This document shows, piece after piece, positions 50-23,214 of a stretch of 39,624 nt of DNA. Numbering within the stretch: the first letter of the stretch is position 1; the number at the start of each line of letters is the position of its first letter. The notes under the pieces were generated by a model. It ran no database searches. It had not been told where the DNA came from and saw only the letters and a program-made list of their open reading frames with translations. The position numbers were made by a program, and so were the translations under genes. This DNA is from a virus: the UHGV virus genome UHGV-0068444. One strand, 5' to 3'.

Positions 50-667
50 GTGAAACGCATAAGGATAAAGAAACCAAGATGGATTTTTGTTATTTTATTT
101 TTTGTATTTTTAGGTATTCCATTATTTATTGATGGTATCAAGTATACTGATTACGCTTCAGAGAATTTGCTGCCTGAATTTACTGGTGTAATACTTGAGT
201 TTGTAATCATTCTTTATGTTATTGATTATATTCAAAAGAAAAATGAGCGTGATAATAAAATAAAAGCAGAAAAACGTTTGCGTGAAATGTTTATTTTTTT
301 CTTTAATAAACTGAATGACCACGTTCCTGAAAATTGCAGGATCGGATCTTTTTACGGGCGAGAGCATGATAAAAATAAGCGTCAAATGTCATTAATGAAA
401 GCCCATATAGAAAAACATGGGCTAGATGAAAAGGCAATAAGAGAAATTCGTATTCATTGCAAAGGTGATATTGATTTATTCAATAGTTTTATTCCAGTTG
501 TTGCTACATTAGAAGAGCAGCATTTAAAAGCATGGACGAGAATTTCATATTACATGAATGCAATAATTACGGAAAGAGAAACTGTACAATTTTCCGTTAT
601 AAAAATCATTGATAAAATACAGACATTTGATGATGCATCCTATAATAATAAACTGATAGTAGATTAA
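50..667 (+). CDS. Hypothetical membrane protein (two N-terminal hydrophobic helices plus charged cytoplasmic domain); AT-rich cargo gene
   Basis: 205-aa ORF with GTG start and AGGT-type RBS; visibly AT-rich versus the adjacent int; converges on and overlaps the int stop by 4 nt. Confidence 0.5.
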   Translation: MKRIRIKKPRWIFVILFFVFLGIPLFIDGIKYTDYASENLLPEFTGVILEFVIILYVIDYIQKKNERDNKIKAEKRLREMFIFFFNKLNDHVPENCRIGSFYGREHDKNKRQMSLMKAHIEKHGLDEKAIREIRIHCKGDIDLFNSFIPVVATLEEQHLKAWTRISYYMNAIITERETVQFSVIKIIDKIQTFDDASYNNKLIVD

Positions 668-1791
668 GAGGGTATTTTTTGCCATTCTTTACCTCTGTCA
701 TCATGATATTTATCTGTTTGATGCTGGGTTTTATGACCCAGCAATTTTTGTGTATCAATTCCCTGGTCTTTGTAAAGACGTTCAGACAATGATCTTTGCT
801 CATGGAATGTAGCGGGTGTTCCATCTCCCCATTTAATACAAGCCTTATCCCTCGCCTTACTGAAATTCATCGTTAATGTGTTCGATTTAACTTGTGCGCC
901 TCGTTTAGCCTGTGATGTAGCTCGGAAAAAGTGAATCAGATAGGGGCTAACTGCATAATCTCGACAGCGCGCAACGACGTCACGTAAACTCCAGTTAATC
1001 GCATTGAGGCGAAGAGAAAGAGGTATAGCAATTTTGCTGCCGGTTTTTTCCTGTTCGATATGCAGATGATCATCCCAGATATCGCTAAATTTCATTTTGG
1101 ATATGTCACCAAGACGTTGCCCAGTCACAAGGGCAAGCAGCATTGCATTTCCCATATATTGATGTTTCTTATCTGCGATATCGAAAATCTTCAGCCACTC
1201 TTCGAGACTAAGTCGTTGTCTGGTAATCTTGCGCCTGGGCTGTTTAGTAGCAAGGGCAGGGTTGTGACCAGGCGGCACTTCACCGTAGTGTTGGGCCTCT
1301 TTGAAAACATCGATCAGTACTGAACGAACAACTTGTGCCATTCTTGGTTGACCTGCAGATAGATACTCTTCAAGAATTTGAGCAATATCCCTGACATCAA
1401 CAGAAGATATGAGCTTCATTCCCGCACGTTCCTTAAGAAGTGCAACTGGCTTGGCTTTTTGTTTATACGTATTCTCCTTGATATCACCTGAAGCGAATCT
1501 TTCCTCCTGAATTTTCCAGTACCGCTCAAGCCAGGTAACAGTGGTAATTGACTTACCCTTGCCGGTAGCAATTCGATCGCTTATAGCCAGTACCTGTCTT
1601 GAACGCTGCTCAGCAAGTCTTGCGTTTGCCTCAGTAGCAATTGCTTTAGCCTCAACTTCATCAGTACCTAGGCTGTGAAATTTCCCCGTTACAGGATGCT
1701 TGTACCTCCAATACACTTTATTGACCTTACGACTGTATAGTGGATAGAGGTTAGGTATTGATACATTATTTTTACGTGGTCTCGCAGCCAT
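664..1791 (-). CDS. int: Tyrosine integrase, lambda Int family
   Basis: Start at MAARPRKNNVSIPNLY (ORF extends to 1869); N-terminus and C-terminal HEQRSLSERLY...LLGHK...YHDDRG region parallel lambda Int arm-binding and catalytic motifs. Confidence 0.9.
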   Translation of the reverse strand: MAARPRKNNVSIPNLYPLYSRKVNKVYWRYKHPVTGKFHSLGTDEVEAKAIATEANARLAEQRSRQVLAISDRIATGKGKSITTVTWLERYWKIQEERFASGDIKENTYKQKAKPVALLKERAGMKLISSVDVRDIAQILEEYLSAGQPRMAQVVRSVLIDVFKEAQHYGEVPPGHNPALATKQPRRKITRQRLSLEEWLKIFDIADKKHQYMGNAMLLALVTGQRLGDISKMKFSDIWDDHLHIEQEKTGSKIAIPLSLRLNAINWSLRDVVARCRDYAVSPYLIHFFRATSQAKRGAQVKSNTLTMNFSKARDKACIKWGDGTPATFHEQRSLSERLYKDQGIDTQKLLGHKTQHQTDKYHDDRGKEWQKIPS

Positions 1792-2017
1792 CGCTGAGGA
1801 TCCTTTGCAATTTTGGTGAATCAGATTTCTTGATAACCGGCGCAGCAAGTTCTCCAACCAATTCCGCATCCTCCCTAACTCTCCAGAGCCTACCTTGCTT
1901 CATTGCTGGTGGAGAAAAGAGATTTTGCTTAGCGTAACGGCGCAATGTCGAGACGCTAGGTGGATTACTTCTGTATTTATCGGTTGCCCATTCTTCAAGA
2001 GTTAACATCTGAATCAT
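1772..2017 (-). CDS. xis: Excisionase (lambda Xis-like)
   Basis: 81 aa; MLTLEEWA...RRYAKQNLFSPP resembles lambda Xis MYLTLQEW...RRWVRECRIFPPP; GGAG RBS; overlaps int start as in lambda. Confidence 0.75.
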   Translation of the reverse strand: MIQMLTLEEWATDKYRSNPPSVSTLRRYAKQNLFSPPAMKQGRLWRVREDAELVGELAAPVIKKSDSPKLQRILSDGCETT

Positions 2018-13406: not shown

Positions 13407-13427
13407 GTGTATGGAGCGCAAAGAAGC

Positions 13428-14117
13428 ATGAATCAACAAGACCTGAATTTTGTAAGAATAGAATTGCGCCGCGCGCTACCTGACCTCTCTGGGGGAACAA
13501 AAGGGCAGCTTGAGGCTTTCAGTGAACACCCACCAGCAGACAAAAATGCCACCCCGCGCCGTGGAATTCATCTCGTCGAACTCGAAGGAGAGAAGGGGCC
13601 TCGCTTTGTTAACTCGCTTTCCGCGCCATTGTATGTATTGGAAACACGCAGCCGCTGCAGGCCAATGCCGCCGATAAAAGATGCGGAATTTGAGTCCGCG
13701 CCGTGGCGTAGGGCAGTGTCCGCGCTTAGTGGATACCAGCAGGCCTGGTTGCGGTACTGCTACGGTTTTGACCTTAGCTATAAGCACCAGGTGATGATGT
13801 GTGAATACGTCTGGAAAACTTATCAGAAATGTCTGGGTGATAATTCCCTTCAGGAGCGCGTAGTAAAGAAACTGATTGGCCTGGTATGGCTGGCAGGGCA
13901 GGAAATTGCCGCAACCAGAAATAATGAAACCTATAAAGACTATGCTGGTGCAGCGTTGGCCCGCATGGTTAGCGTTGATCGTTCGACATGGTTGCGTGTC
14001 TATTCAGGGCACTGGGCTGGGTTAAAGGCCGCTTTTACCCAGCTTGATGAATCTGCGTTGGCAATGGCTCTTGAATACTATGAGGAAGAAGAAGCCCTCA
14101 AAGTGGCAGAAATGTAA
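13428..14117 (+). CDS. Late-gene antitermination protein, Q-like
   Basis: Start MNQQDLNF (alternative GTG at 13407); position between nin-like genes and a tR'-type terminator; family assignment by context and recollection. Confidence 0.55.
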   Translation: MNQQDLNFVRIELRRALPDLSGGTKGQLEAFSEHPPADKNATPRRGIHLVELEGEKGPRFVNSLSAPLYVLETRSRCRPMPPIKDAEFESAPWRRAVSALSGYQQAWLRYCYGFDLSYKHQVMMCEYVWKTYQKCLGDNSLQERVVKKLIGLVWLAGQEIAATRNNETYKDYAGAALARMVSVDRSTWLRVYSGHWAGLKAAFTQLDESALAMALEYYEEEEALKVAEM

Positions 14118-14280: not shown

Positions 14281-15132
14281 ATGAAAATAGATAATCCCGA
14301 AAATCCACTTGAACGAAACGATTTTTCGATGGATGACTTCCATCACTACTTAAGGGAGTTTGATAAAGCTGTATGTGAAGCGAATGCTGTAAGTCAGGGG
14401 GTTGGTGTGCGAATGGCTGAGGCTTTTAAAGGGTGGTCTACATACATTTTTTCACGAATCTGCATTCATGCTTCAATAATGATTTCCAACGTACCAAAAT
14501 CAAGATGGGCTAAGCGGGATTATGACTTTTGGGATTTTTCGGCGATTGCACCTCATGTAAGAGCGATTCTGGAAGCTGAGTTATTGTTTATGTATTTATC
14601 TGAGAATCCAGATTCAACTGAGGAGTGGTCAGCAAAGTTGAATGTCATGCACATGAATGATTGTGTAAAGAGAATTGAGTTATTTACATCTAGTGATAAT
14701 ACGAAAGCATTGGATTTTTATCATGAACAAAAAGATATAATAACTGAGAGACTTAATAACAACCCTGTTTTTTTATCCCTTGAACAAGGAACCAGAAAAC
14801 GTTGCTTGACTGGAAAAGCGCTTATGATTCCAAATCGAGATGAGTTATTGGTTAAACTGGGAAAAGATCCAAAGTCATTTAAAATAATGTTCGATTTTTT
14901 ATCTCATTATACGCATATACTACCTATGTCATATTATAAAATGGAGCCAAACGGAAGAGGAACTGGTTGTTTTAACAACTATGACTTTGGCTATATGATT
15001 ATGGGGATGATTATTTGTACTGAATCCTTGACTAAGTGTACAGATAGATTAGTAGAACTTTTTCCTGATGTTAGACGGTTGCGAAAAGGAACTAAATCAA
15101 AATTCACGTTAGGTCCTAAACCTACAAAATAA
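14281..15132 (+). CDS. AT-rich hypothetical protein (283 aa), cargo gene; function unknown
   Basis: ATG after AGGTGAAG RBS; visibly lower GC than flanking phage genes; no hydrophobic segments; no motif recognised. Confidence 0.6.
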   Translation: MKIDNPENPLERNDFSMDDFHHYLREFDKAVCEANAVSQGVGVRMAEAFKGWSTYIFSRICIHASIMISNVPKSRWAKRDYDFWDFSAIAPHVRAILEAELLFMYLSENPDSTEEWSAKLNVMHMNDCVKRIELFTSSDNTKALDFYHEQKDIITERLNNNPVFLSLEQGTRKRCLTGKALMIPNRDELLVKLGKDPKSFKIMFDFLSHYTHILPMSYYKMEPNGRGTGCFNNYDFGYMIMGMIICTESLTKCTDRLVELFPDVRRLRKGTKSKFTLGPKPTK

Positions 15133-15350: not shown

Positions 15351-16013
15351 TTATGAAGAGAGCAGCATGACTTTTTCTTTTGCGGGCGAAGGTGACTGCT
15401 CTTTCAAAGGGAAAATTATAAATGCTATAAATGCAGTAAATAATACTATGAAAGCTAGCACTGTAACTTTCCTTGAAGATGATAGGGCTTTGTTATATTC
15501 CTTGGCTATTTTGTTCGTTATATGGATCTTAGTGCTATTTATTTCATCTTTTAGTATGGATAATTTATTTATAAATTCCTGTGTTTCTTCTCGAGAGTAA
15601 AGTTCTGAAGCATCTCTTGGGGTTTCATGTGGATGCCGAGTATAACCAAGTATTTGTGGTATTAAATTACCATGCGATTGAACTACAGATTCATATTTCT
15701 TATAGCAAGCATTATCAAAAAATCTCATTCTTATGCTAAGTTCTCTGAGTTTGTCAACGTCTAGAGAAACTTGTTCGTTGGCAATAATTAAATCTCCGCG
15801 GTTTAATGTATTCTTGTGTTGAAAAATTAGTAAAAGCCATTCTGTATTATTGTAAAGCTTTTCAAGATTGGCATGTATATCAAGTCCGAGTTTTTCATAT
15901 GCGGATAATTTGACCTCTTTTTCCTTTGCAGAAAGAGAAGATGAATAAGCCAGTAATCCGCTTATTATGGCAACAATAAATGTTCCTATAATGGTTAAGG
16001 TATTCGAGTCCAT
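15351..16013 (-). CDS. AT-rich hypothetical membrane protein (one N-terminal and one C-terminal TM helix), cargo gene
   Basis: Start MDSNTLTIIGTFIVAIISGLL (ORF extends to 16070); C-terminal VLAFIVLFTAFIAFIIF hydrophobic helix; convergent with the 14281 gene. Confidence 0.55.
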   Translation of the reverse strand: MDSNTLTIIGTFIVAIISGLLAYSSSLSAKEKEVKLSAYEKLGLDIHANLEKLYNNTEWLLLIFQHKNTLNRGDLIIANEQVSLDVDKLRELSIRMRFFDNACYKKYESVVQSHGNLIPQILGYTRHPHETPRDASELYSREETQEFINKLSILKDEINSTKIHITNKIAKEYNKALSSSRKVTVLAFIVLFTAFIAFIIFPLKEQSPSPAKEKVMLLSS

Positions 16014-16120
16014 TGTATTCTTCAAAAGTTGGTCAAAAATATATTGTAATATTTTAATGTATAAAATCAATCATTTCCCCTCATTCTGAGAGGACTCCCA
16101 GCAACAAAGAGGGGGGCTAA

Positions 16121-16507
16121 ATGTCCGATCCGATTTCCGGTTCTGGGATGGCTGGTGGTGTCCTGACGGGGGCCAGCGTCTATGGATTTCTGTCCGGAAC
16201 CGATTACGGCGTGGTGTTTGGCGCATTTGCCGGGGCTGTATTTTACATTGCAACCGCAGCGGATCTAAGTGCAGCGCGCCGACTGGCATATTTTCTGGTG
16301 TCGTATATTGCGGGGATCCTTTGTTCCGGGCTGGTGGGTTCAAAGCTGGCTCAGGCTACCGGCTACAGTGATAAACCACTGGATGCCATTGGCGCCGTAA
16401 TCGTTTCTGCTTTAGCCGTCAAAATCCTGACATTCCTGAATAATCAGGATGTCGGCTCGCTGGTGGCGCTGATAACGCGCCGGGGAGGTTCAGGTGGTAC
16501 AAAATGA
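16121..16507 (+). CDS. Putative holin (three predicted TM segments)
   Basis: 128 aa, Gly/Ala-rich hydrophobic segments; first gene of the lysis cassette upstream of endolysin. Confidence 0.55.
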   Translation: MSDPISGSGMAGGVLTGASVYGFLSGTDYGVVFGAFAGAVFYIATAADLSAARRLAYFLVSYIAGILCSGLVGSKLAQATGYSDKPLDAIGAVIVSALAVKILTFLNNQDVGSLVALITRRGGSGGTK

Positions 16508-16775
16508 CCCATCGGCAACTTTTAATGCATTGCTTTGTGCTGGGGTAGTGTTAACCCTGATGTTTTACCGTCGCGGCGACTCGCGACATCGACCGTGGAT
16601 ATCTCGCTTAGCGTGGCTGCTTACGGTCATCTACAGCGCCGTTCCGCTGGCGTATCTGTGCGGTATTTACCCGTACTCATCATGGGCCACTATCGGGGCC
16701 AACTTTATTTTCCTGTCCGTGCTGGTCGCCGTAAGAGGCAACGTGGCACGTCTGGTTGATCATCTGAGGCACTAA
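16494..16775 (+). CDS. Second small membrane lysis protein (holin or antiholin-like)
   Basis: 93 aa, three hydrophobic segments; overlaps the upstream gene; stop overlaps the endolysin start. Confidence 0.45.
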   Translation: MVQNDPSATFNALLCAGVVLTLMFYRRGDSRHRPWISRLAWLLTVIYSAVPLAYLCGIYPYSSWATIGANFIFLSVLVAVRGNVARLVDHLRH

Positions 16776-17389
16776 TGAACCAATCACAATTTCAGCAGGC
16801 GGCTGGTATCAGCGCCGGGCTTTCTGCGCGCTGGTTTCCGCACATTGACGCGGCAATGAAAGAGTTTGGCATTACAGCTACGAACGATCTGGCTATGTTC
16901 ATCGCCCAGGTTGGGCATGAGTCTGCTGGCTTTACCTCGCTGGTGGAAAGCTTCAACTACTCGGTAGAGGGGCTGAAGAAAACCTTTGGTAAACGGCTTA
17001 CTCCTTATCAGTGTGAAATGCTGGGTCGTGTCGATGGTAAGCAGGTGGCCCACCAGCCGCAAATAGCCAATCTGGTTTATGGTGACCGCATGGGGAATAA
17101 CAGCCAGGGTGACGGCTGGAAATATCGCGGTCGCGGCCTGCTGCAAATCACGGGTCGTGAGAACTACACCAAATGCGGCACGGCGCTGAAACTTGACCTT
17201 ATCAGTACGCCAGAATTGCTAACGCAAGAGCGACATGCGGCTCGTTCGGCTGCGTGGTACTTCACGTTACGCGGTTGCCTGATGTATTCGGGTGACGTGG
17301 CACGCGTTACGCAGATTATTAACGGCGGACAGAACGGCATTAAAGACCGCCGTGAACGTTACGCCAAAGCTAAAGCTGCACTGGTGTGA
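16775..17389 (+). CDS. Endolysin, glycoside hydrolase family 19 (chitinase-like lysozyme)
   Basis: 204 aa; AQVGHESAGF...YRGRGLLQITGRENY resembles the GH19 catalytic core. Confidence 0.8.
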   Translation: MNQSQFQQAAGISAGLSARWFPHIDAAMKEFGITATNDLAMFIAQVGHESAGFTSLVESFNYSVEGLKKTFGKRLTPYQCEMLGRVDGKQVAHQPQIANLVYGDRMGNNSQGDGWKYRGRGLLQITGRENYTKCGTALKLDLISTPELLTQERHAARSAAWYFTLRGCLMYSGDVARVTQIINGGQNGIKDRRERYAKAKAALV

Positions 17390-17396
17390 GGTCAGT

Positions 17397-17666
17397 ATGG
17401 GGCTTGAAATGATTATCGGCCTGGTTGTTGCTGTGCTGGCTGCAATTGCAGGTGCTTTTGGGCTGGGCAAATCACGCGGTACCAGTATCGCTGAAACAAA
17501 AGCGGACCAACAACGCACTGAAGAACGTGCAATAGCTATTGAAGCGGTTGCAGAACGCCGGGTAGAAACAACAAAAGGAGCCAGGGATGTACAACAGACT
17601 GTTAACCATATGCCTGATGACGCTGCTGATCGCGAGCTGCGCAAAAACTGGACACGTAAGGATTGA
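17397..17666 (+). CDS. Inner-membrane spanin (Rz-like)
   Basis: Start MGLEMIIGLVVAVLAAIAGAFGL (N-terminal TM) after GAGG RBS; charged coiled-coil-like remainder; directly after endolysin. Confidence 0.6.
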   Translation: MGLEMIIGLVVAVLAAIAGAFGLGKSRGTSIAETKADQQRTEERAIAIEAVAERRVETTKGARDVQQTVNHMPDDAADRELRKNWTRKD

Positions 17667-17808
17667 GGTTATTGACACCGGCTGCGATTGGGTAAAACCC
17701 ATCTACGGCACTGCTCATGATTGGGAAGTGCTGGACAGGCAGACCAAGAAAGACATTCTTATGCATAACAAAGTGTGGATGTCAAACTGTGGCTCTATAA
17801 CTTATTGA
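17587..17808 (+). CDS. Outer-membrane lipoprotein spanin (Rz1-like), overlapping Rz out of frame
   Basis: MYNRLLTICLMTLLIASC has a lipobox (LIASC); starts inside the Rz-like ORF in another frame. Confidence 0.6.
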   Translation: MYNRLLTICLMTLLIASCAKTGHVRIEVIDTGCDWVKPIYGTAHDWEVLDRQTKKDILMHNKVWMSNCGSITY

Positions 17809-18459
17809 TTTTGTTTTTTTGTTGTCTACCATATCAGGCAATGTGAAGGCATATAGAAGAAATACTTCGGTGAAACCAATCATTTCTTGAGCATCTTCTT
17901 TTGAAAATTCTTCATCAGAATGAACTGCTCCATTGGAATCGATTCGAACTATATGTGCCCATTCCCTCATTTGATCTGTAATCAGTCCCTTAGCATGCAA
18001 CATAGAAATCCGTTTAACCAATTTTTCATCTTTTGAGTCATTTCCCAGTAACTCCCGTGTAGCAATGTCCAAGACTTTACGGCAAAGCATAACGGATGTG
18101 TCGAAACGACAGCGCCCTAAGTTGTCTTTTGCTTCTATGAAAGCCATAGCAGCACGTGGCGGAGTGTGTTCGGGGGCGTTAAGGAGGGTGGGTTTCGGGA
18201 TGATATCAATCAACTGGTACTCAGTATTTCCAGGAATGATTACGTTTACATCATTATTTTGCCTAGATTTTGCACGAGGTAAATAACCACCGGGATTATT
18301 CATTTTTACAATAGCAATACCTGATTGAAAACAGCTTCGACAACAAAATGCAATATTAACTAAAGGCCCGGCGTTGATACGCAGTTCTGCCCATCCTTCA
18401 AGGACAGCATTTTCCCTCAGACAATGTGGGCAAGTGATATCGAAAGTGAGAATTCGCAT
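17782..18459 (-). CDS. Hypothetical protein with N-terminal zinc-ribbon (CPHC...CCRSC) and C-terminal helical domain; reverse-strand cargo gene
   Basis: Start MRILTFDITCPHCL after GGAG RBS (ORF extends to 18504); moderately AT-rich; C-terminal region loosely reminiscent of DUF4145-type domains (unverified). Confidence 0.55.
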   Translation of the reverse strand: MRILTFDITCPHCLRENAVLEGWAELRINAGPLVNIAFCCRSCFQSGIAIVKMNNPGGYLPRAKSRQNNDVNVIIPGNTEYQLIDIIPKPTLLNAPEHTPPRAAMAFIEAKDNLGRCRFDTSVMLCRKVLDIATRELLGNDSKDEKLVKRISMLHAKGLITDQMREWAHIVRIDSNGAVHSDEEFSKEDAQEMIGFTEVFLLYAFTLPDMVDNKKTKSISYRATV

Positions 18460-19140
18460 GACTCTACTCCATACATTAAAAGAAATTGAAAATGAATTAC
18501 ACAATGCACAACGACCTGAGTCTACACTCCTTCAACGATATGAAGTATCGAATGAGATTAAAAAAAAGGAGTTTGTAGTCGCTTTGATCGGTAAACTGAT
18601 AGAATTGGACCGCCGTCTCTATGTCACATCATTGAAGCCTTAGTTTCAATTTTACCGATTTATCGCTTAAGGGGTAGGACTTCAACACTACTAAGTGAGC
18701 ATTGCAGCAGGCATTCAGGGGAATGCTGTGACAGTAGTTAGCTAGGGTAAACCGTTTGCGCCTGGGGATTTTACTTTGCGACGGAAAATTAAAAAACTAT
18801 ATGATTTCTTATCCCACTAGGATGTCTGCGGACTACTACTGACTGTTTAGGCTATTACGAGGGGCTCAAACTCAACGTCTGGCATCAACGCAGAACTGAA
18901 AAAGTCGCCATGAATGTGGTTACGGTATTTGGTGGGATATAAACGTACCTTCATTTCTAAGCTTGATAATCACCTTTGTCCGAATTGCCTACGCGATAGT
19001 CATGTAGTTTTAGTCATAACCGTTTACCCTATTGATGTCAAGATAAATTGGATAACACTGATGAATCGAACCTCTAAATCCTTTGATGGGCCACTCATAG
19101 CTGACTGGTTCAAAAAAGTGTTATCAATGGTATGATAAGT

Positions 19141-19170
19141 TGAGATGAAAGGTGTAAATGAACTATAATA
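19141..19170 (+). promoter_or_regulatory. Sigma70-like promoter for the 19205-19854 two-gene cassette
   Basis: -35 TTGAGA (19141-19146), 18-bp spacer, -10 TATAAT (19165-19170). Confidence 0.5.
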
Positions 19171-19204
19171 ATTCAACAGTTAATCTGAGAAAAATGGATT
19201 ATGT

Positions 19205-19474
19205 ATGTCGAATGTAAAAAAAATAGATGCTATAGTTCAAAATTTATTTGAATTCAGAGATGCTACAGGTGAACTTACGGATAAAAATATTGTTTTAATA
19301 CAAAAAATCATAACGAACTTACCTGACTATGCTGGTAAGGATCCATATGAATTTTATTCATCATTTTCTGAAGATATTAATGAGTCGCTCAAAGCAATTG
19401 CCAATTATCATAAGGCACATGCTAAATACATTAATGCCCTCGATAAATTAGCAGAGCTTAGGTCGGAGGGGTAA
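19205..19474 (+). CDS. Small hypothetical soluble protein (89 aa), first gene of an AT-rich cassette
   Basis: Very AT-rich ORF; stop lies 2 nt before the start of the next gene. Confidence 0.55.
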   Translation: MSNVKKIDAIVQNLFEFRDATGELTDKNIVLIQKIITNLPDYAGKDPYEFYSSFSEDINESLKAIANYHKAHAKYINALDKLAELRSEG

Positions 19475-19476
19475 TA

Positions 19477-19854
19477 ATGGCTACGGAAGATATTCAGGCT
19501 TTGTTATCTAAAGTTAATGCGTTAAGATTTGAAGATAAAAGAATAGAGAAGGAAACAGGAGAGATTGAAAATGAAATTCAGGCTCAATTTCTTCGTGATG
19601 GTAAAACAAGGAGTACATTAACCATAACATTTATGAGAGGCTTTTTTGGTCTTATCGTTTTTTCTTTTATATTTGTGATAGCTTATAACTATTGCGCAGT
19701 GCAATGGGTACTTCAATTACAAAGCAAAGGGCTCATGGAGGCTTCTAAAAGTATCGCACTACTTGAGTTAGATAAGGTGTTATCTATTATGGTTAGTGCG
19801 TTAGGAACATCTCTTGGGTTTATAATTGGCTATTATTTTAAAGACAAAAAATAA
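19477..19854 (+). CDS. Hypothetical membrane protein (125 aa): charged helical N-terminus plus two C-terminal TM helices
   Basis: FFGLIVFSFIFVIAYNY and VLSIMVSALGTSLGFIIGYYF hydrophobic segments; followed by a strong terminator. Confidence 0.55.
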   Translation: MATEDIQALLSKVNALRFEDKRIEKETGEIENEIQAQFLRDGKTRSTLTITFMRGFFGLIVFSFIFVIAYNYCAVQWVLQLQSKGLMEASKSIALLELDKVLSIMVSALGTSLGFIIGYYFKDKK

Positions 19855-19930
19855 ATAATTTAATTTTACATTGCTATTTATGTTTTGCTTTTAAGATTTT
19901 TAACTTTCTAGATGTAGAGTTATTGTTAAA

Positions 19931-19958
19931 GCACTGGTATTTGCCAGTGCTTTTTTAT
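19931..19958 (+). terminator. Intrinsic terminator closing the 19205-19854 cassette
   Basis: gcactgg-tatttg-ccagtgc hairpin followed by TTTTTT. Confidence 0.7.
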
Positions 19959-20360
19959 TAAAATCCGCGGATTAATGACGGCAATCATGAATACTCCTCC
20001 AAAGACTGATCCAACGATACGGGTGTATAAGTCACACTTGTTTAATCTGTGATTGATGGCACTATAATTTATGTTGCACAACATAAACTGCCGATGGAGG
20101 GAATTGAGTGCTGAGCATGTCAGACATAAGTGTGTTGTCGAAGGTCTCCTCAGGCATGGTTTCTGCATAACGTCGACACTTGAAAGCCTCCATAATGACA
20201 ATAAAGTATAAGTATTATCATTATTAATTGTCACTTGCCGTTGCGACATGCTTGGGCGGCGACCGCCTAAGTTCTCTTTATAAATGAGAAGTTCCCGCTA
20301 GCGACCGTTTCTGATTCTTTTTTTCTACTAAGTTTGTATCAAATAAACAGGATAATGCCG

Positions 20361-20723
20361 ATGCCAGCACGAGCAAAGCGTCCATGCCGGCACAAGGGCT
20401 GTGCGGCAGTTACCAACGATGCCAGTGGCTATTGTGATCAACACCGACAGCGGCATGCTGGTGATGGCTGGCGTAACTATCAGGCAGGAAAGAGCAGGCA
20501 GGAACGTGGATATGGGCGGACCTGGGAAATTAAACGGGTGCGTATCCTTCAGCGTGATAAGTACCTGTGTCAGAACCATCGCCGGCAGAAGATTGCAAAA
20601 AAGGCGACCAGCGTTGACCACATCATTCCAAAAGCTCATGGCGGTACTGATGACGATTTCAATCTTGAGTCGTTGTGCTGGGACTGCCACAGAGCGAAGA
20701 CGGCAAGAGAGCGTATCCGATGA
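20361..20723 (+). CDS. HNH endonuclease (terminase-associated type)
   Basis: Start MPARAKRPCRHKGC (ORF extends to 20334); Cys pairs CRHKGC...CDQH and C-terminal HIIPKAHGGTDDDFNLESLCWDCH motif; sits just upstream of terminase small subunit. Confidence 0.8.
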   Translation: MPARAKRPCRHKGCAAVTNDASGYCDQHRQRHAGDGWRNYQAGKSRQERGYGRTWEIKRVRILQRDKYLCQNHRRQKIAKKATSVDHIIPKAHGGTDDDFNLESLCWDCHRAKTARERIR

Positions 20724-21058: not shown

Positions 21059-21493
21059 ATGGCTGGTGGAATTCGATCATCAGGCGGAGGGCGAAAGCCC
21101 GTTTTACCTTCAGGACAAAAAAGCAAACTGACCAGAATCGCACCTCCCGCTGAGTTAATGGGGGAGAATGCAATAAGACTGTGGAAAACCCAAAGTAAAA
21201 TTCTGATCGAAAGAGGCGTGTTTGAACTGGAGGATGCGCCCCTGCTTCTGGCTTACTGCAATGCCTTCCATTTAATGCTTGAAGCTGAAAAATTGCTCTC
21301 GTCAAGCCTGACGACCGAAAGTGAAATGGGGGGATTAAAGAAACATCCCGCCGTTAACATCAGAAATGATTCTGTTTCCCAGATAGCCCGTCTTGGCTCG
21401 CTTCTGGGGTTGGATCCACTCAGCCGAATTAGGATGCGTGGCAGTGGAAATGATCCGGACGACGACGGGAATGAATTTGATGAGTTTGACTGA
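21059..21493 (+). CDS. Terminase small subunit (P27-like family)
   Basis: 144 aa; position immediately upstream of and overlapping the large-subunit start; acidic C-terminus. Confidence 0.65.
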   Translation: MAGGIRSSGGGRKPVLPSGQKSKLTRIAPPAELMGENAIRLWKTQSKILIERGVFELEDAPLLLAYCNAFHLMLEAEKLLSSSLTTESEMGGLKKHPAVNIRNDSVSQIARLGSLLGLDPLSRIRMRGSGNDPDDDGNEFDEFD

Positions 21494-23214
21494 TGGCTAC
21501 ATATCCGAACGTCAATGCAGCGAACCAGTATGCAAGAGATGTTGTTGGCGGGAAGATCCTTGCTTGTCAGTTAACTGTGCTTGCCTGTCAAAGACACCTT
21601 GATGATTTGGAACGTGCGAAGGATCCTGCCTGGCCTTACCGGTTTGATAAAAACAAGGCCGAGCGATTTTTGCGCTTTGCTCAGAAGATGCCTCATACGG
21701 CCGGTGAATGGGCCAGGAAGAAACTACGAATAGAATTTGAGCCCTGGCAAAAGTTTGCCCTTGGTGTGCCATTTGGATGGGTTAATAAGAAGTCCGGATT
21801 CCGGCGTTTTTCTGAAATATATATTGAGGTGCCCAGGAAAAATGGGAAATCCGCAATTGCAGCTGCCGTTGGTAATTATATGTTTTGCGCCGATGGTGAA
21901 CATGGTGCAGAAGTGTACTGTGGCGCCACTACTGAAAAACAAGCCTGGAAAGTCTTCTCTCCCGCTCTACAAATGGTAAAAAAACTCCCGGCATTGCGAC
22001 AAAAATACTCAGTCAAACCCTGGGCGAAGAAAATGACCCGTCCGGATGGCTCTGTTTTTGCGCCAGTCATCGGCGATCCTGGTGACGGCGATTCCCCTTC
22101 ATGTGCAATTATTGATGAATATCACGAGCATCAGACTGATGCACTTTATACAACGATGACTACCGGGATGGGGGCAAGGGAGCAGCCTGTTACTCTGATT
22201 ATTACTACAGCGGGTTATGACATTACTTCGCCCTGTTACGAGAAGCGTGTGCAGATAGTGGAAATTCTCCGCCGTAACCGGACAGGAGAAGAAAACGAGA
22301 CAATATTTGGCATTATATACGGTCTGGATGACGATGATGACTGGACCAGGCCCGAAGCGCTGATTAAAGCAAATCCCAACTTTGGTGTTTCTGTTAAAGA
22401 GCATTTTCTTCGGGCGAAGCAGTTACTGGGAATATCCAATCCCAGCCAGACTAACAAAATTCTGACCAAGCACTTTAACCGGTGGGTAAGTGCAAAAACG
22501 GTTTTTTATGACCTGCAAAGATGGATGGCTGCTGCGGATAAAAACCTTAAATTATCTGATTTTGTTGATGAGGATTGCTGGCTGGGTATTGATCTGGCCT
22601 CGAAAGTAGACCTGAATGCCGTAGTGCCAGTGTTCAGGAGAGAGGTTGCTGGTATAACCCATTTTTACTGTGTGGGGCCGCTGTTCTGGGCGCCTGAAGA
22701 TACAATTTATTCACCAGATCCCACGCTGAAAACCATTTCTGAACGTTACCAGTCATTTGTGAAACAGGGGGTATTGATACCTACTGAAGGGGCTGAGGTG
22801 GATTATCGGTTAATTTTTGAGTCAATTCTTCAGTTACGCCAGCAGGTTAAAATTGTCCAGTGCCCGATAGATCCTTACGGGGCAACATCATTGCGCCATC
22901 TGCTTGAAGAGGAGGGGCTGGAATCCGTTGAGATCAGGCAAAATTTTACACATATGAGTGATCCAATGCGTGAAATTGAGGCGGCGCTGGCATCAGGACG
23001 CTTTCATCATGACGGTAACCCTATCATGAACTGGTGCATCCAGAATGTTATAGGGCGTTACTTACCAGGAAGCGATGACATTGTTCGCCCAGGGAAGGAG
23101 AGAAAGCAAAACAAAATAGATGGCGCGGTAGGACTAATGATGGGAGTCGGGCGAGCCATGCTGAACGGAACTGTCAGTAAATCGGCTTATGATGAGGAAG
23201 ATATTACATGTTGA
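21493..23214 (+). CDS. Terminase large subunit
   Basis: 573 aa; ATPase-like N-terminal region and nuclease-like C-terminal region (WLGIDLASKVDLNAVV); follows the small subunit, precedes portal. Confidence 0.9.
   Translation: MATYPNVNAANQYARDVVGGKILACQLTVLACQRHLDDLERAKDPAWPYRFDKNKAERFLRFAQKMPHTAGEWARKKLRIEFEPWQKFALGVPFGWVNKKSGFRRFSEIYIEVPRKNGKSAIAAAVGNYMFCADGEHGAEVYCGATTEKQAWKVFSPALQMVKKLPALRQKYSVKPWAKKMTRPDGSVFAPVIGDPGDGDSPSCAIIDEYHEHQTDALYTTMTTGMGAREQPVTLIITTAGYDITSPCYEKRVQIVEILRRNRTGEENETIFGIIYGLDDDDDWTRPEALIKANPNFGVSVKEHFLRAKQLLGISNPSQTNKILTKHFNRWVSAKTVFYDLQRWMAAADKNLKLSDFVDEDCWLGIDLASKVDLNAVVPVFRREVAGITHFYCVGPLFWAPEDTIYSPDPTLKTISERYQSFVKQGVLIPTEGAEVDYRLIFESILQLRQQVKIVQCPIDPYGATSLRHLLEEEGLESVEIRQNFTHMSDPMREIEAALASGRFHHDGNPIMNWCIQNVIGRYLPGSDDIVRPGKERKQNKIDGAVGLMMGVGRAMLNGTVSKSAYDEEDITC

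Follow-up and report, generated by a model that had tools for sequence, protein, structure and literature searches.

A 39,624-nucleotide (nt) stretch of viral DNA (UHGV virus genome UHGV-0068444; the whole stretch is termed the window) contains a compact cassette of two genes, A and B, encoding a small soluble protein and a small membrane protein. Comparative analysis of the sequences gave good support for this cassette being a moron, i.e. an operon of two genes that is mobile, foreign in base composition and equipped with its own terminator and a promoter-like site at a suitable position. The pair may well be a membrane effector with its regulator, of the abortive-infection type, acting in phage-phage conflict, a proposal that we hold with about even confidence. 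The components of the cassette are as follows.

19140–19169, plus strand: predicted sigma70-like promoter, with a -35 hexamer TTGAGA (19140–19145), an 18-nt spacer and a -10 hexamer TATAAT (19164–19169).
19205–19474, plus strand: gene A, encoding an acidic soluble protein of 89 amino acids (aa) that is predicted to form an antiparallel helical hairpin.
19465–19471, plus strand: Shine-Dalgarno sequence GGAGGGG for gene B, inside the 3' end of A.
19477–19854, plus strand: gene B, encoding a predicted inner-membrane protein of 125 aa with two transmembrane (TM) helices.
19928–19961, plus strand: intrinsic terminator with an 11-bp stem and 4-nt loop (19928–19953) followed by a T-run.

The near-consensus promoter hexamers reported by an initial annotation of this DNA were present 36 nt 5' of gene A and were the sole match at 11 or more of the 12 positions on either strand of the window. 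In shuffles preserving local composition, such sites occurred at 0.52 per window, and only 1% of these shuffles had one on the plus strand within 200 nt upstream of A (p ~0.01). Folding of the terminator gave -16.9 kcal/mol (z-score = -3.67) with none of 200 shuffles being equally stable. The stop codon of A (19472–19474) ends 2 nt ahead of the ATG of B (19477), as had been noted initially, and from this arrangement the two genes are judged to be translationally coupled. The guanine-cytosine (GC) content of A and B together was 0.325 as compared to 0.497 for the whole window. Description of the cassette as the most AT-rich coding stretch was slightly overstated, as two open reading frames (ORFs) had lower values (i.e. 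50–667, GC 0.294; and 15351–16070 on the minus strand, GC 0.322).

Comparative loci were obtained from a scan of IMG/VR that gave 40 loci, and 35 non-redundant loci were used for counts of genomic context. Wherever a locus included DNA 5' of B, an ORF of ~100 aa ended at or overlapped the start of B, and the two genes overlapped or abutted in most related loci. A hidden Markov model (HMM) of the A family, constructed from 13 partners, recovered all 39 partner ORFs plus three outside the training set and had no other match among 2,738 ORFs. The pairing is thus strict (42/42 loci) because the A model matches only the ORF directly 5' of B. Nei-Gojobori analysis of homologous pairs demonstrated that the proportion of non-synonymous differences (pN) was far below that of synonymous differences (pS) in both genes, indicating that A and B are real coding genes under purifying selection. 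The ratio of non-synonymous to synonymous substitution rates (dN/dS) was 0.09–0.59 for A and 0.04–0.09 for B, A being the faster-evolving gene. An origin of these ORFs as spurious reading frames in AT-rich DNA was rejected on the basis of this codon-level selection signal and of deep conservation.

Protein A carries a net charge of -3 and lacks hydrophobic segments, in agreement with its initial description as a soluble protein. An AlphaFold2 model with a predicted local distance difference test (pLDDT) score of 92 consisted of a helix at residues 3–42, a short helix at 47–52 and a further helix at 55–88. The protein matched PHROG 21707 (5e-8), a PHROG of unknown function, and only R18, Y68 and Y75 were near-invariant across the A family. 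In a subgroup of loci from Providencia, Morganella and Moellerella, the A frame is ~40 codons longer at the N-terminus (L027, 4505–4933; L029/L031, 4481–4879; L051/L052, 5592–5990), and gene callers include this extension. The extension holds a conserved hydrophobic motif, IFFPL(F/I)A(L/I)WM(L/F)WK, and its second codon positions vary least. This pattern suggests that A is membrane-anchored in this subgroup. Such an anchor would put A at the membrane, a point in favour of an effector-regulator pair.

Protein B comprises a variable, cytoplasmic N-terminal helix (residues 1 to ~50), a juxtamembrane RDGKTRS motif, TM1, the Y70-N71 pair, a periplasmic loop containing LLELDK, TM2 and a YYFK tail. 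The initial description of a charged helical N-terminus followed by two C-terminal TM helices was borne out both by hydropathy, with Kyte-Doolittle peaks at ~54–76 (TM1) and ~101–121 (TM2), and by an AlphaFold2 model (pLDDT 78). In this model a single helix (residues 3–83) runs from the charged region into TM1 and is followed by a short periplasmic segment and by TM2 at residues 98–122. The charge is +3 ahead of TM1 and +2 at the tail, and hydropathy and charge distribution together indicate a predicted N-in/C-in topology. A full-length match was obtained to PHROG 20796 (8e-49; function unknown), and a protein database clustered at 90% contained 132 relatives, each of ~125 aa and labelled 'hypothetical', which came from Enterobacterales or metagenomes. 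The A-B family is common in prophages of Klebsiella, Enterobacter, Serratia, Pantoea, Proteus and Providencia. Alignment of the B family (A1) identified R45, T49, F52, Y70-N71, W77 and G110-T-S-L-G114-F-I-I-G118-Y-Y-F-K122 as invariant, giving a membrane-core consensus of TR..YN..GxxxGxxxGYYFK in which G110xxxG114xxxG118 of TM2 forms a glycine-zipper pattern. In channel-forming proteins, pinholins among them, glycine zippers bring about the tight packing of helices in homo-oligomers. Mean pairwise identity was 0.24 for A, 0.20 for residues 1–39 of B and 0.58 for residues 40–125 of B.

With the B profile as query, exhaustive HMMER searching extended the family to 234 clusters (50% identity, E <= 1e-3), nearly all of 100–150 aa, that have the core TR...TM1...YN...TM2-GF(I/V)xGYYFK and occur also in marine, root and Planctomycetota metagenomes. 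R45, N71, F115 and Y119-K122 were invariant across this wider superfamily. Genomic context was inspected for three distant homologues of B, and an ORF of 87–94 aa was found directly upstream in all three. These loci (L053, 4664–5687; L055, 547–1272; L056, 3010–3647) derive from a Planctomycetota metagenome-assembled genome, root and other metagenomes; L053 lies in a housekeeping, non-prophage chromosomal neighbourhood. The three distant partners are homologous to one another and have the motif IDxLxxQTxxLF in common.

The genomic context of the pair was examined by annotating with Pfam the plus-strand ORFs flanking the 35 non-redundant loci. Six holin families, endolysins of the GH19, T4-type lysozyme, M15 and GH108 types, and Rz and LysC spanins were found upstream of the pair, whilst HNH genes and three terminase types were found downstream. 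This variety of lysis and terminase types indicates that the usual site is the lysis/packaging junction, whichever module the phage has. Examples include Klebsiella phage P7641, a prophage inside a K. pneumoniae plasmid, and loci from Buttiauxella, Pantoea and Moellerella. In P2-like phages the pair is located between the replication gene A and portal gene Q of the phage (i.e. gpA-gpQ), the old/tin locus that is a documented defence hotspot (PMC9122126). In Proteus phages its position is that of the HK97 gene 15 exclusion moron, with the tail chaperone gene on one side and the tape measure gene on the other (PMC3594210; HK97 annotation). Two loci (L014/L015) have the pair beside a lambda-type integrase and another has it after a P2 gpD-like gene. 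Overall, the same A-B pair was found in four or more distinct cargo slots amongst phage backbones that are unrelated. The GC content of the module was 0.32–0.39, being at least 0.11 below that of the flanks in 30 of the 35 loci, and a hairpin-plus-T terminator was present within 200 nt after B in 25 of them. No promoter footprint was obtained, as the DNA preceding A in the window does not align with that of its closest homologue (Buttiauxella, B 68% identical). Neither the phage collection nor complete E. coli genomes gave a match in a nucleotide search with the cassette, and a search with the HNH-terS-terL region gave fragmentary E. coli matches only.

Other cargo was observed around the pair in related loci. 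In a Pantoea prophage (L049/L050, 1370–3868) that has A-B after its lysis genes, the interval from Q to the holin gene is occupied by HicAB and by Kiwa (KwaA/KwaB, on the reverse strand), such that several cargo slots are filled within one phage. In two unrelated phages, a pair of ORFs of ~485 aa and ~206–212 aa is located directly after A-B and before the HNH or terminase genes (L022, 5403–7483; L050, 6504–8566). These two ORFs had no Pfam or PADLOC match and may be another cargo unit of the A-B slot. PADLOC searches of other cargo ORFs beside A-B in related loci produced no match.

Gene order and family annotation identified the window as a lambdoid, HK97-like prophage of 39.6 kb with the following features outside the cassette.

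664–1869, minus strand: integrase.
13407–14117: Q antiterminator.
16121–16775: two holin-family genes.
16775–17389: GH19 endolysin.
17400–17808: spanin-like ORFs.
17782–18459, minus strand: RAZR-like gene (longest ORF to 18504), between the spanins and the cassette and antisense to the late operon.
18914–19135, plus strand: decayed HNH fragment, a 73-aa ORF directly upstream of the cassette promoter.
20334–20723: HNH gene.
21059–21493: terS.
21493–23214: terL, followed by portal, protease and capsid genes.

The cassette is sited in the 2.6 kb gap between the spanin-like ORFs and the HNH gene, where the order is RAZR-like gene, decayed HNH fragment, A-B and intact HNH gene. The product of the RAZR-like gene has a Cys4 zinc-ribbon-like N-terminus (CPHC...CCRSC), a DUF4145/HEPN-like domain (DUF4145, 8e-11) with an R-x7-H motif, and a weak match to the PD-T7-4 HMM of PADLOC (E 0.0019). 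RAZR/PD-T7-4 is an abortive-infection RNase with a zinc finger plus DUF4145 architecture and with R146 and H154 at the same spacing (PMC13017515). In Klebsiella phage 2b LV-2017, a RAZR-like gene is found alone, and is unannotated, between the spanin gene and terS. The Tai defence genes have been reported to lie mostly upstream of the packaging module (PMC11364771). The presence of the RAZR-like gene in 2b LV-2017 and the position of Tai indicate that this slot serves bona fide defence genes. RAZR-like homologues were also observed in the early region of Stx phages, beside a Ren-like gene and a RelE/ParE gene. The decayed ORF has 43% identity over 51 aa to an intact HNH protein (E 2e-10) with loss of the catalytic DH, and 68% nt identity to the HNH gene of locus L030. 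This recombination scar forms the left border of the cassette. The arrangement looks like two cargo units stacked via recombination within HNH. Comparison with locus L023 detected 96% nt identity over 16076–17771 (lysis genes) and 87% over 20361–20723 (HNH), the DNA between these shared blocks in L023 holding another A-B allele (43% identity in B) and an extra ORF that also differs. A scan of 17500–20500 with Rfam gave no match.

Morons are independent cargo transcription units in phage genomes according to the definition of Juhala and Hendrix (PMC3594210). The A-B cassette differs in base composition from its surroundings, ends in its own terminator and constitutes 'more DNA' that is exchanged between related phages, as exemplified by the content of L023 and by the four or more slots. 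Assignment as a moron follows from the promoter-like site, the terminator, the dip in GC content in 30/35 loci and the occurrence in at least four slots of unrelated backbones, and the same evidence provides good support for the initial view of the cassette as an autonomous transcription unit.

We infer the class of function of this moron, since neither protein has homology to a known defence, exclusion, toxin-antitoxin or lysis family. An abortive-infection, exclusion or toxin-antitoxin-like module had been suggested initially; this suggestion fits the slot context and the RAZR-like neighbour, but is not matched by homology to such families. A role in phage-phage conflict is likely in our judgement, with roughly half of the weight falling on an abortive-infection-type effector and regulator and a further, smaller share on an exclusion variant. 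In the proposed mechanism, the promoter of the cassette would express A and B from the repressed prophage. Late transcripts antiterminated by Q would cover them too, since the genes share the orientation of the late operon. B would insert in the inner membrane in an N-in/C-in orientation, and its near-invariant two-helix core with the TM2 glycine zipper would most plausibly self-associate into a lesion or channel in a pinholin- or RexB-like manner. A, a small helical hairpin of the cytoplasm whose synthesis would be coupled stoichiometrically to that of B, may bind to the fast-evolving cytoplasmic N-terminal helix of B and keep B inactive, or may sense the invader. Infection by a competing phage would upset the A-B balance such that B becomes toxic to the cell by permeabilising or depolarising the membrane, and the infection would be aborted or excluded. 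The rapid divergence of A and of the N-terminus of B would then reflect an arms race or cognate-pair specificity.

Several observations weigh against an abortive-infection effector pair. As the initial annotation had stated, neither protein was recognisable, with sequence and structure searches providing no significant match to a named family. Neither A nor B had a match in Pfam, NCBIfam or PADLOC-DB v2.0.0; profile searches of the PDB produced compositional helical matches only; and Foldseek searches of both models against the PDB, and of B against BFVD, gave none with E < 0.1. Probabilities from hhalign were 0.2% for A with RexA, 0.4% for B with RexB, 0.25% with HK97 gp15 (gp15/YebO family) and 0.12% with P22 SieA. 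The distant partners of B had no homology to Enterobacterales A that was detectable by HMM or hhalign; as these partners are present yet unlike A, the two-gene architecture must predate what can be detected of the partner as a sequence family. Co-divergence of A with the N-terminus of B was weak, with a partial rank correlation of 0.20 that is not usable as evidence for binding. Promoter-like sites with at least 9 of 12 matches were found upstream of A in 18/35 loci, but their position was not conserved and such sites are cheap in AT-rich DNA. Guilt by location is a weak argument as the A-B slots also hold non-defence cargo. Most copies are located directly after the spanins in the same direction as the late genes, which fits a lysis role equally well, and the glycine-zipper/pore argument rests on general knowledge. 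Diverse homologues of B likewise gave nothing in Pfam or NCBIfam. A PADLOC search with 25 diverse homologues of B detected no consistent match; weak matches to PD-T4-6 and KwaA, each with one homologue, were taken as noise.

Superinfection exclusion, in which B blocks genome injection without lesions or killing and A is an accessory for stability, insertion or specificity, is unlikely on the combined evidence but carries the largest share of belief among the alternatives considered. B is a small inner-membrane protein of a moron, for which HK97 gp15, P22 SieA and T4 Imm are the injection blockers to compare, and the Proteus phage pair lies exactly at the HK97 gp15 site (PMC3594210). From genus to genus, the membrane core of B and its periplasmic loop (LLELDK, W77) show high conservation, which would be expected to result from contact with a conserved entry component of host or phage. 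The known blockers are, however, single proteins whereas A-B has a strictly conserved cytoplasmic partner, the fast-evolving parts are cytoplasmic and not periplasmic, and there is no homology to gp15 or SieA. A quite improbable explanation is that the pair is an accessory of the phage's own lysis, with B as a holin- or antiholin-like protein and A as a cytoplasmic regulator, expressed by late read-through from pR' and tuning the timing of lysis or late membrane events. This would account for at least 23 of the 35 non-redundant loci, where the pair comes directly after same-strand holin-endolysin-spanin genes, and for the class II holin-like topology and glycine zipper of B. It accords less well with the association of the pair with six unrelated holin families and its absence from most phages with those holins, or with its occurrence far from lysis genes (i.e. 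in P2 gpA-gpQ, beside int, between tail genes and in a non-prophage chromosome). Two holin-family genes, an endolysin and spanins are already provided elsewhere in the window, and the cassette has its own promoter-like site, terminator and GC dip. B had no match to a Pfam holin family and its best PHROG holin was phrog_7045 (E 0.36). Homology to lysis accessory proteins, which had been put forward initially as a finding that would overturn the proposal, is thereby made less probable, even if the position of most copies after the spanins still stands on the side of lysis.

A slightly smaller chance again is given to a pure toxin-antitoxin or addiction module, in which B is a membrane toxin and A a labile antitoxin that together stabilise the prophage or island and have no specific anti-phage role. 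In favour of such a module, the gene for the small soluble protein comes first in a tightly coupled operon, mobile elements carry the pair, at least one copy has an ordinary chromosomal setting, and A evolves faster than B. Against this, A is a plain helical hairpin with no recognisable DNA-binding or autoregulatory domain and no antitoxin-family match, B has no toxin-family match, and neither protein has a Pfam or NCBIfam domain of a type II toxin-antitoxin system; the toxin-antitoxin and abortive-infection explanations are also not mutually exclusive. The least probable of the explanations is that of lysogenic-conversion cargo unrelated to phages, such as an envelope-stress, colicin-tolerance or host-interaction factor. 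Morons encode many host-benefit functions (PMC3594210) and there is no positive evidence for a phage-related activity of A-B, but the pair recurs at exclusion and defence slots, beside RAZR-like, Kiwa and HicAB cargo, and its rapid diversification is typical of conflict systems.

A broader form of the abortive-infection proposal, to which we attach only tentative belief, is that A-B is the founding example of a widely distributed two-component immune or abortive-infection family. In such a family, an invariant glycine-zipper effector would always be preceded by a small, hypervariable helical partner that acts as phage sensor or safety-catch and that has been replaced, or has diverged past the point of recognition, between lineages that all retained the effector.

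Examination of the remainder of the window identified further potential cargo. ORF 50–667 (plus strand), which has the lowest GC content of the window's ORFs, abuts the 3' end of the integrase gene and has no family match; it could be prophage-end cargo or flanking host DNA, and may be compared with the position of A-B beside integrase in L014/L015. Between the Q antiterminator and the holin genes, an interval that is the slot where Stx phages carry toxin genes, ORFs 14281–15132 (plus strand) and 15351–16070 (minus strand) are AT-rich cargo (GC 0.36 and 0.32, respectively). Neither had a PADLOC or NCBIfam match, the first having only a sub-threshold match to DUF5677. A lipobox-like LIASC signal is present in ORF 17587–17808 (plus strand, 73 aa), which had no Pfam match and shares an overlap with the end of the i-spanin-like ORF 17400–17666; the 73-aa ORF is probably the o-spanin (Rz1 equivalent).

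If A-B is an anti-phage module, it would be a very compact defence family of ~650 bp that is unrecognised by PADLOC, Pfam and NCBIfam, and prophages carrying it could affect host range in phage therapy. The combination of a hypervariable cytoplasmic part and an invariant membrane core would provide a clean system for studying how small membrane effectors stay silent and then trigger. The lysis/terminase junction of HK97-like prophages is a site of cargo stacking (i.e. RAZR-like gene, HNH scar and A-B) that is useful for the mining of further systems. If tuning of lysis is the true function, the pair would represent a new class of lysis regulator common to phages with unrelated holins.

A literature search by accession numbers and PHROG identifiers found no paper in the library searched. 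On these comparisons the A-B sequence family is undescribed whilst its kind is familiar, i.e. a prophage moron with a small membrane protein, or a two-component membrane-effector module. The defence cargo P2 old/tin, Tai and RAZR/PD-T7-4 has no sequence relation to A-B but has slots in common with it (gpA-gpQ and the lysis/terminase junction). P22 SieA and T4 Imm, to which A-B would be similar in being small inner-membrane proteins from phage accessory genes that are expressed in the lysogen, are single-gene systems as compared to the two genes of A-B, and homology to SieA is absent. Class II holins resemble B in having two TM helices, a predicted N-in/C-in topology and a charged C-tail, and the pair is usually beside lysis genes. 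In pinholins (e.g. S21 of phage 21) a glycine-zipper-type motif is present in TM2 as in B. B differs from these proteins in its cytoplasmic N-terminal helix of ~50 residues and in its location after the spanins rather than before the endolysin, as well as far from lysis genes. The HK97 gene 15 moron is likewise an AT-rich insert that has a promoter-like site and a terminator of its own and specifies a small inner-membrane protein, but it consists of one gene encoding 62 aa, whereas A-B has two genes and B is a 125-aa protein with two TM helices and a cytoplasmic domain. Lambda RexA/RexB differ in size, topology and location, RexA having 279 aa, RexB having 144 aa and four TM helices as compared to the two of B, and the genes being in the immunity region. 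Both are nevertheless prophage pairs of a soluble and an inner-membrane protein, with the same proposed logic of a cytoplasmic partner that controls a membrane-depolarising effector.

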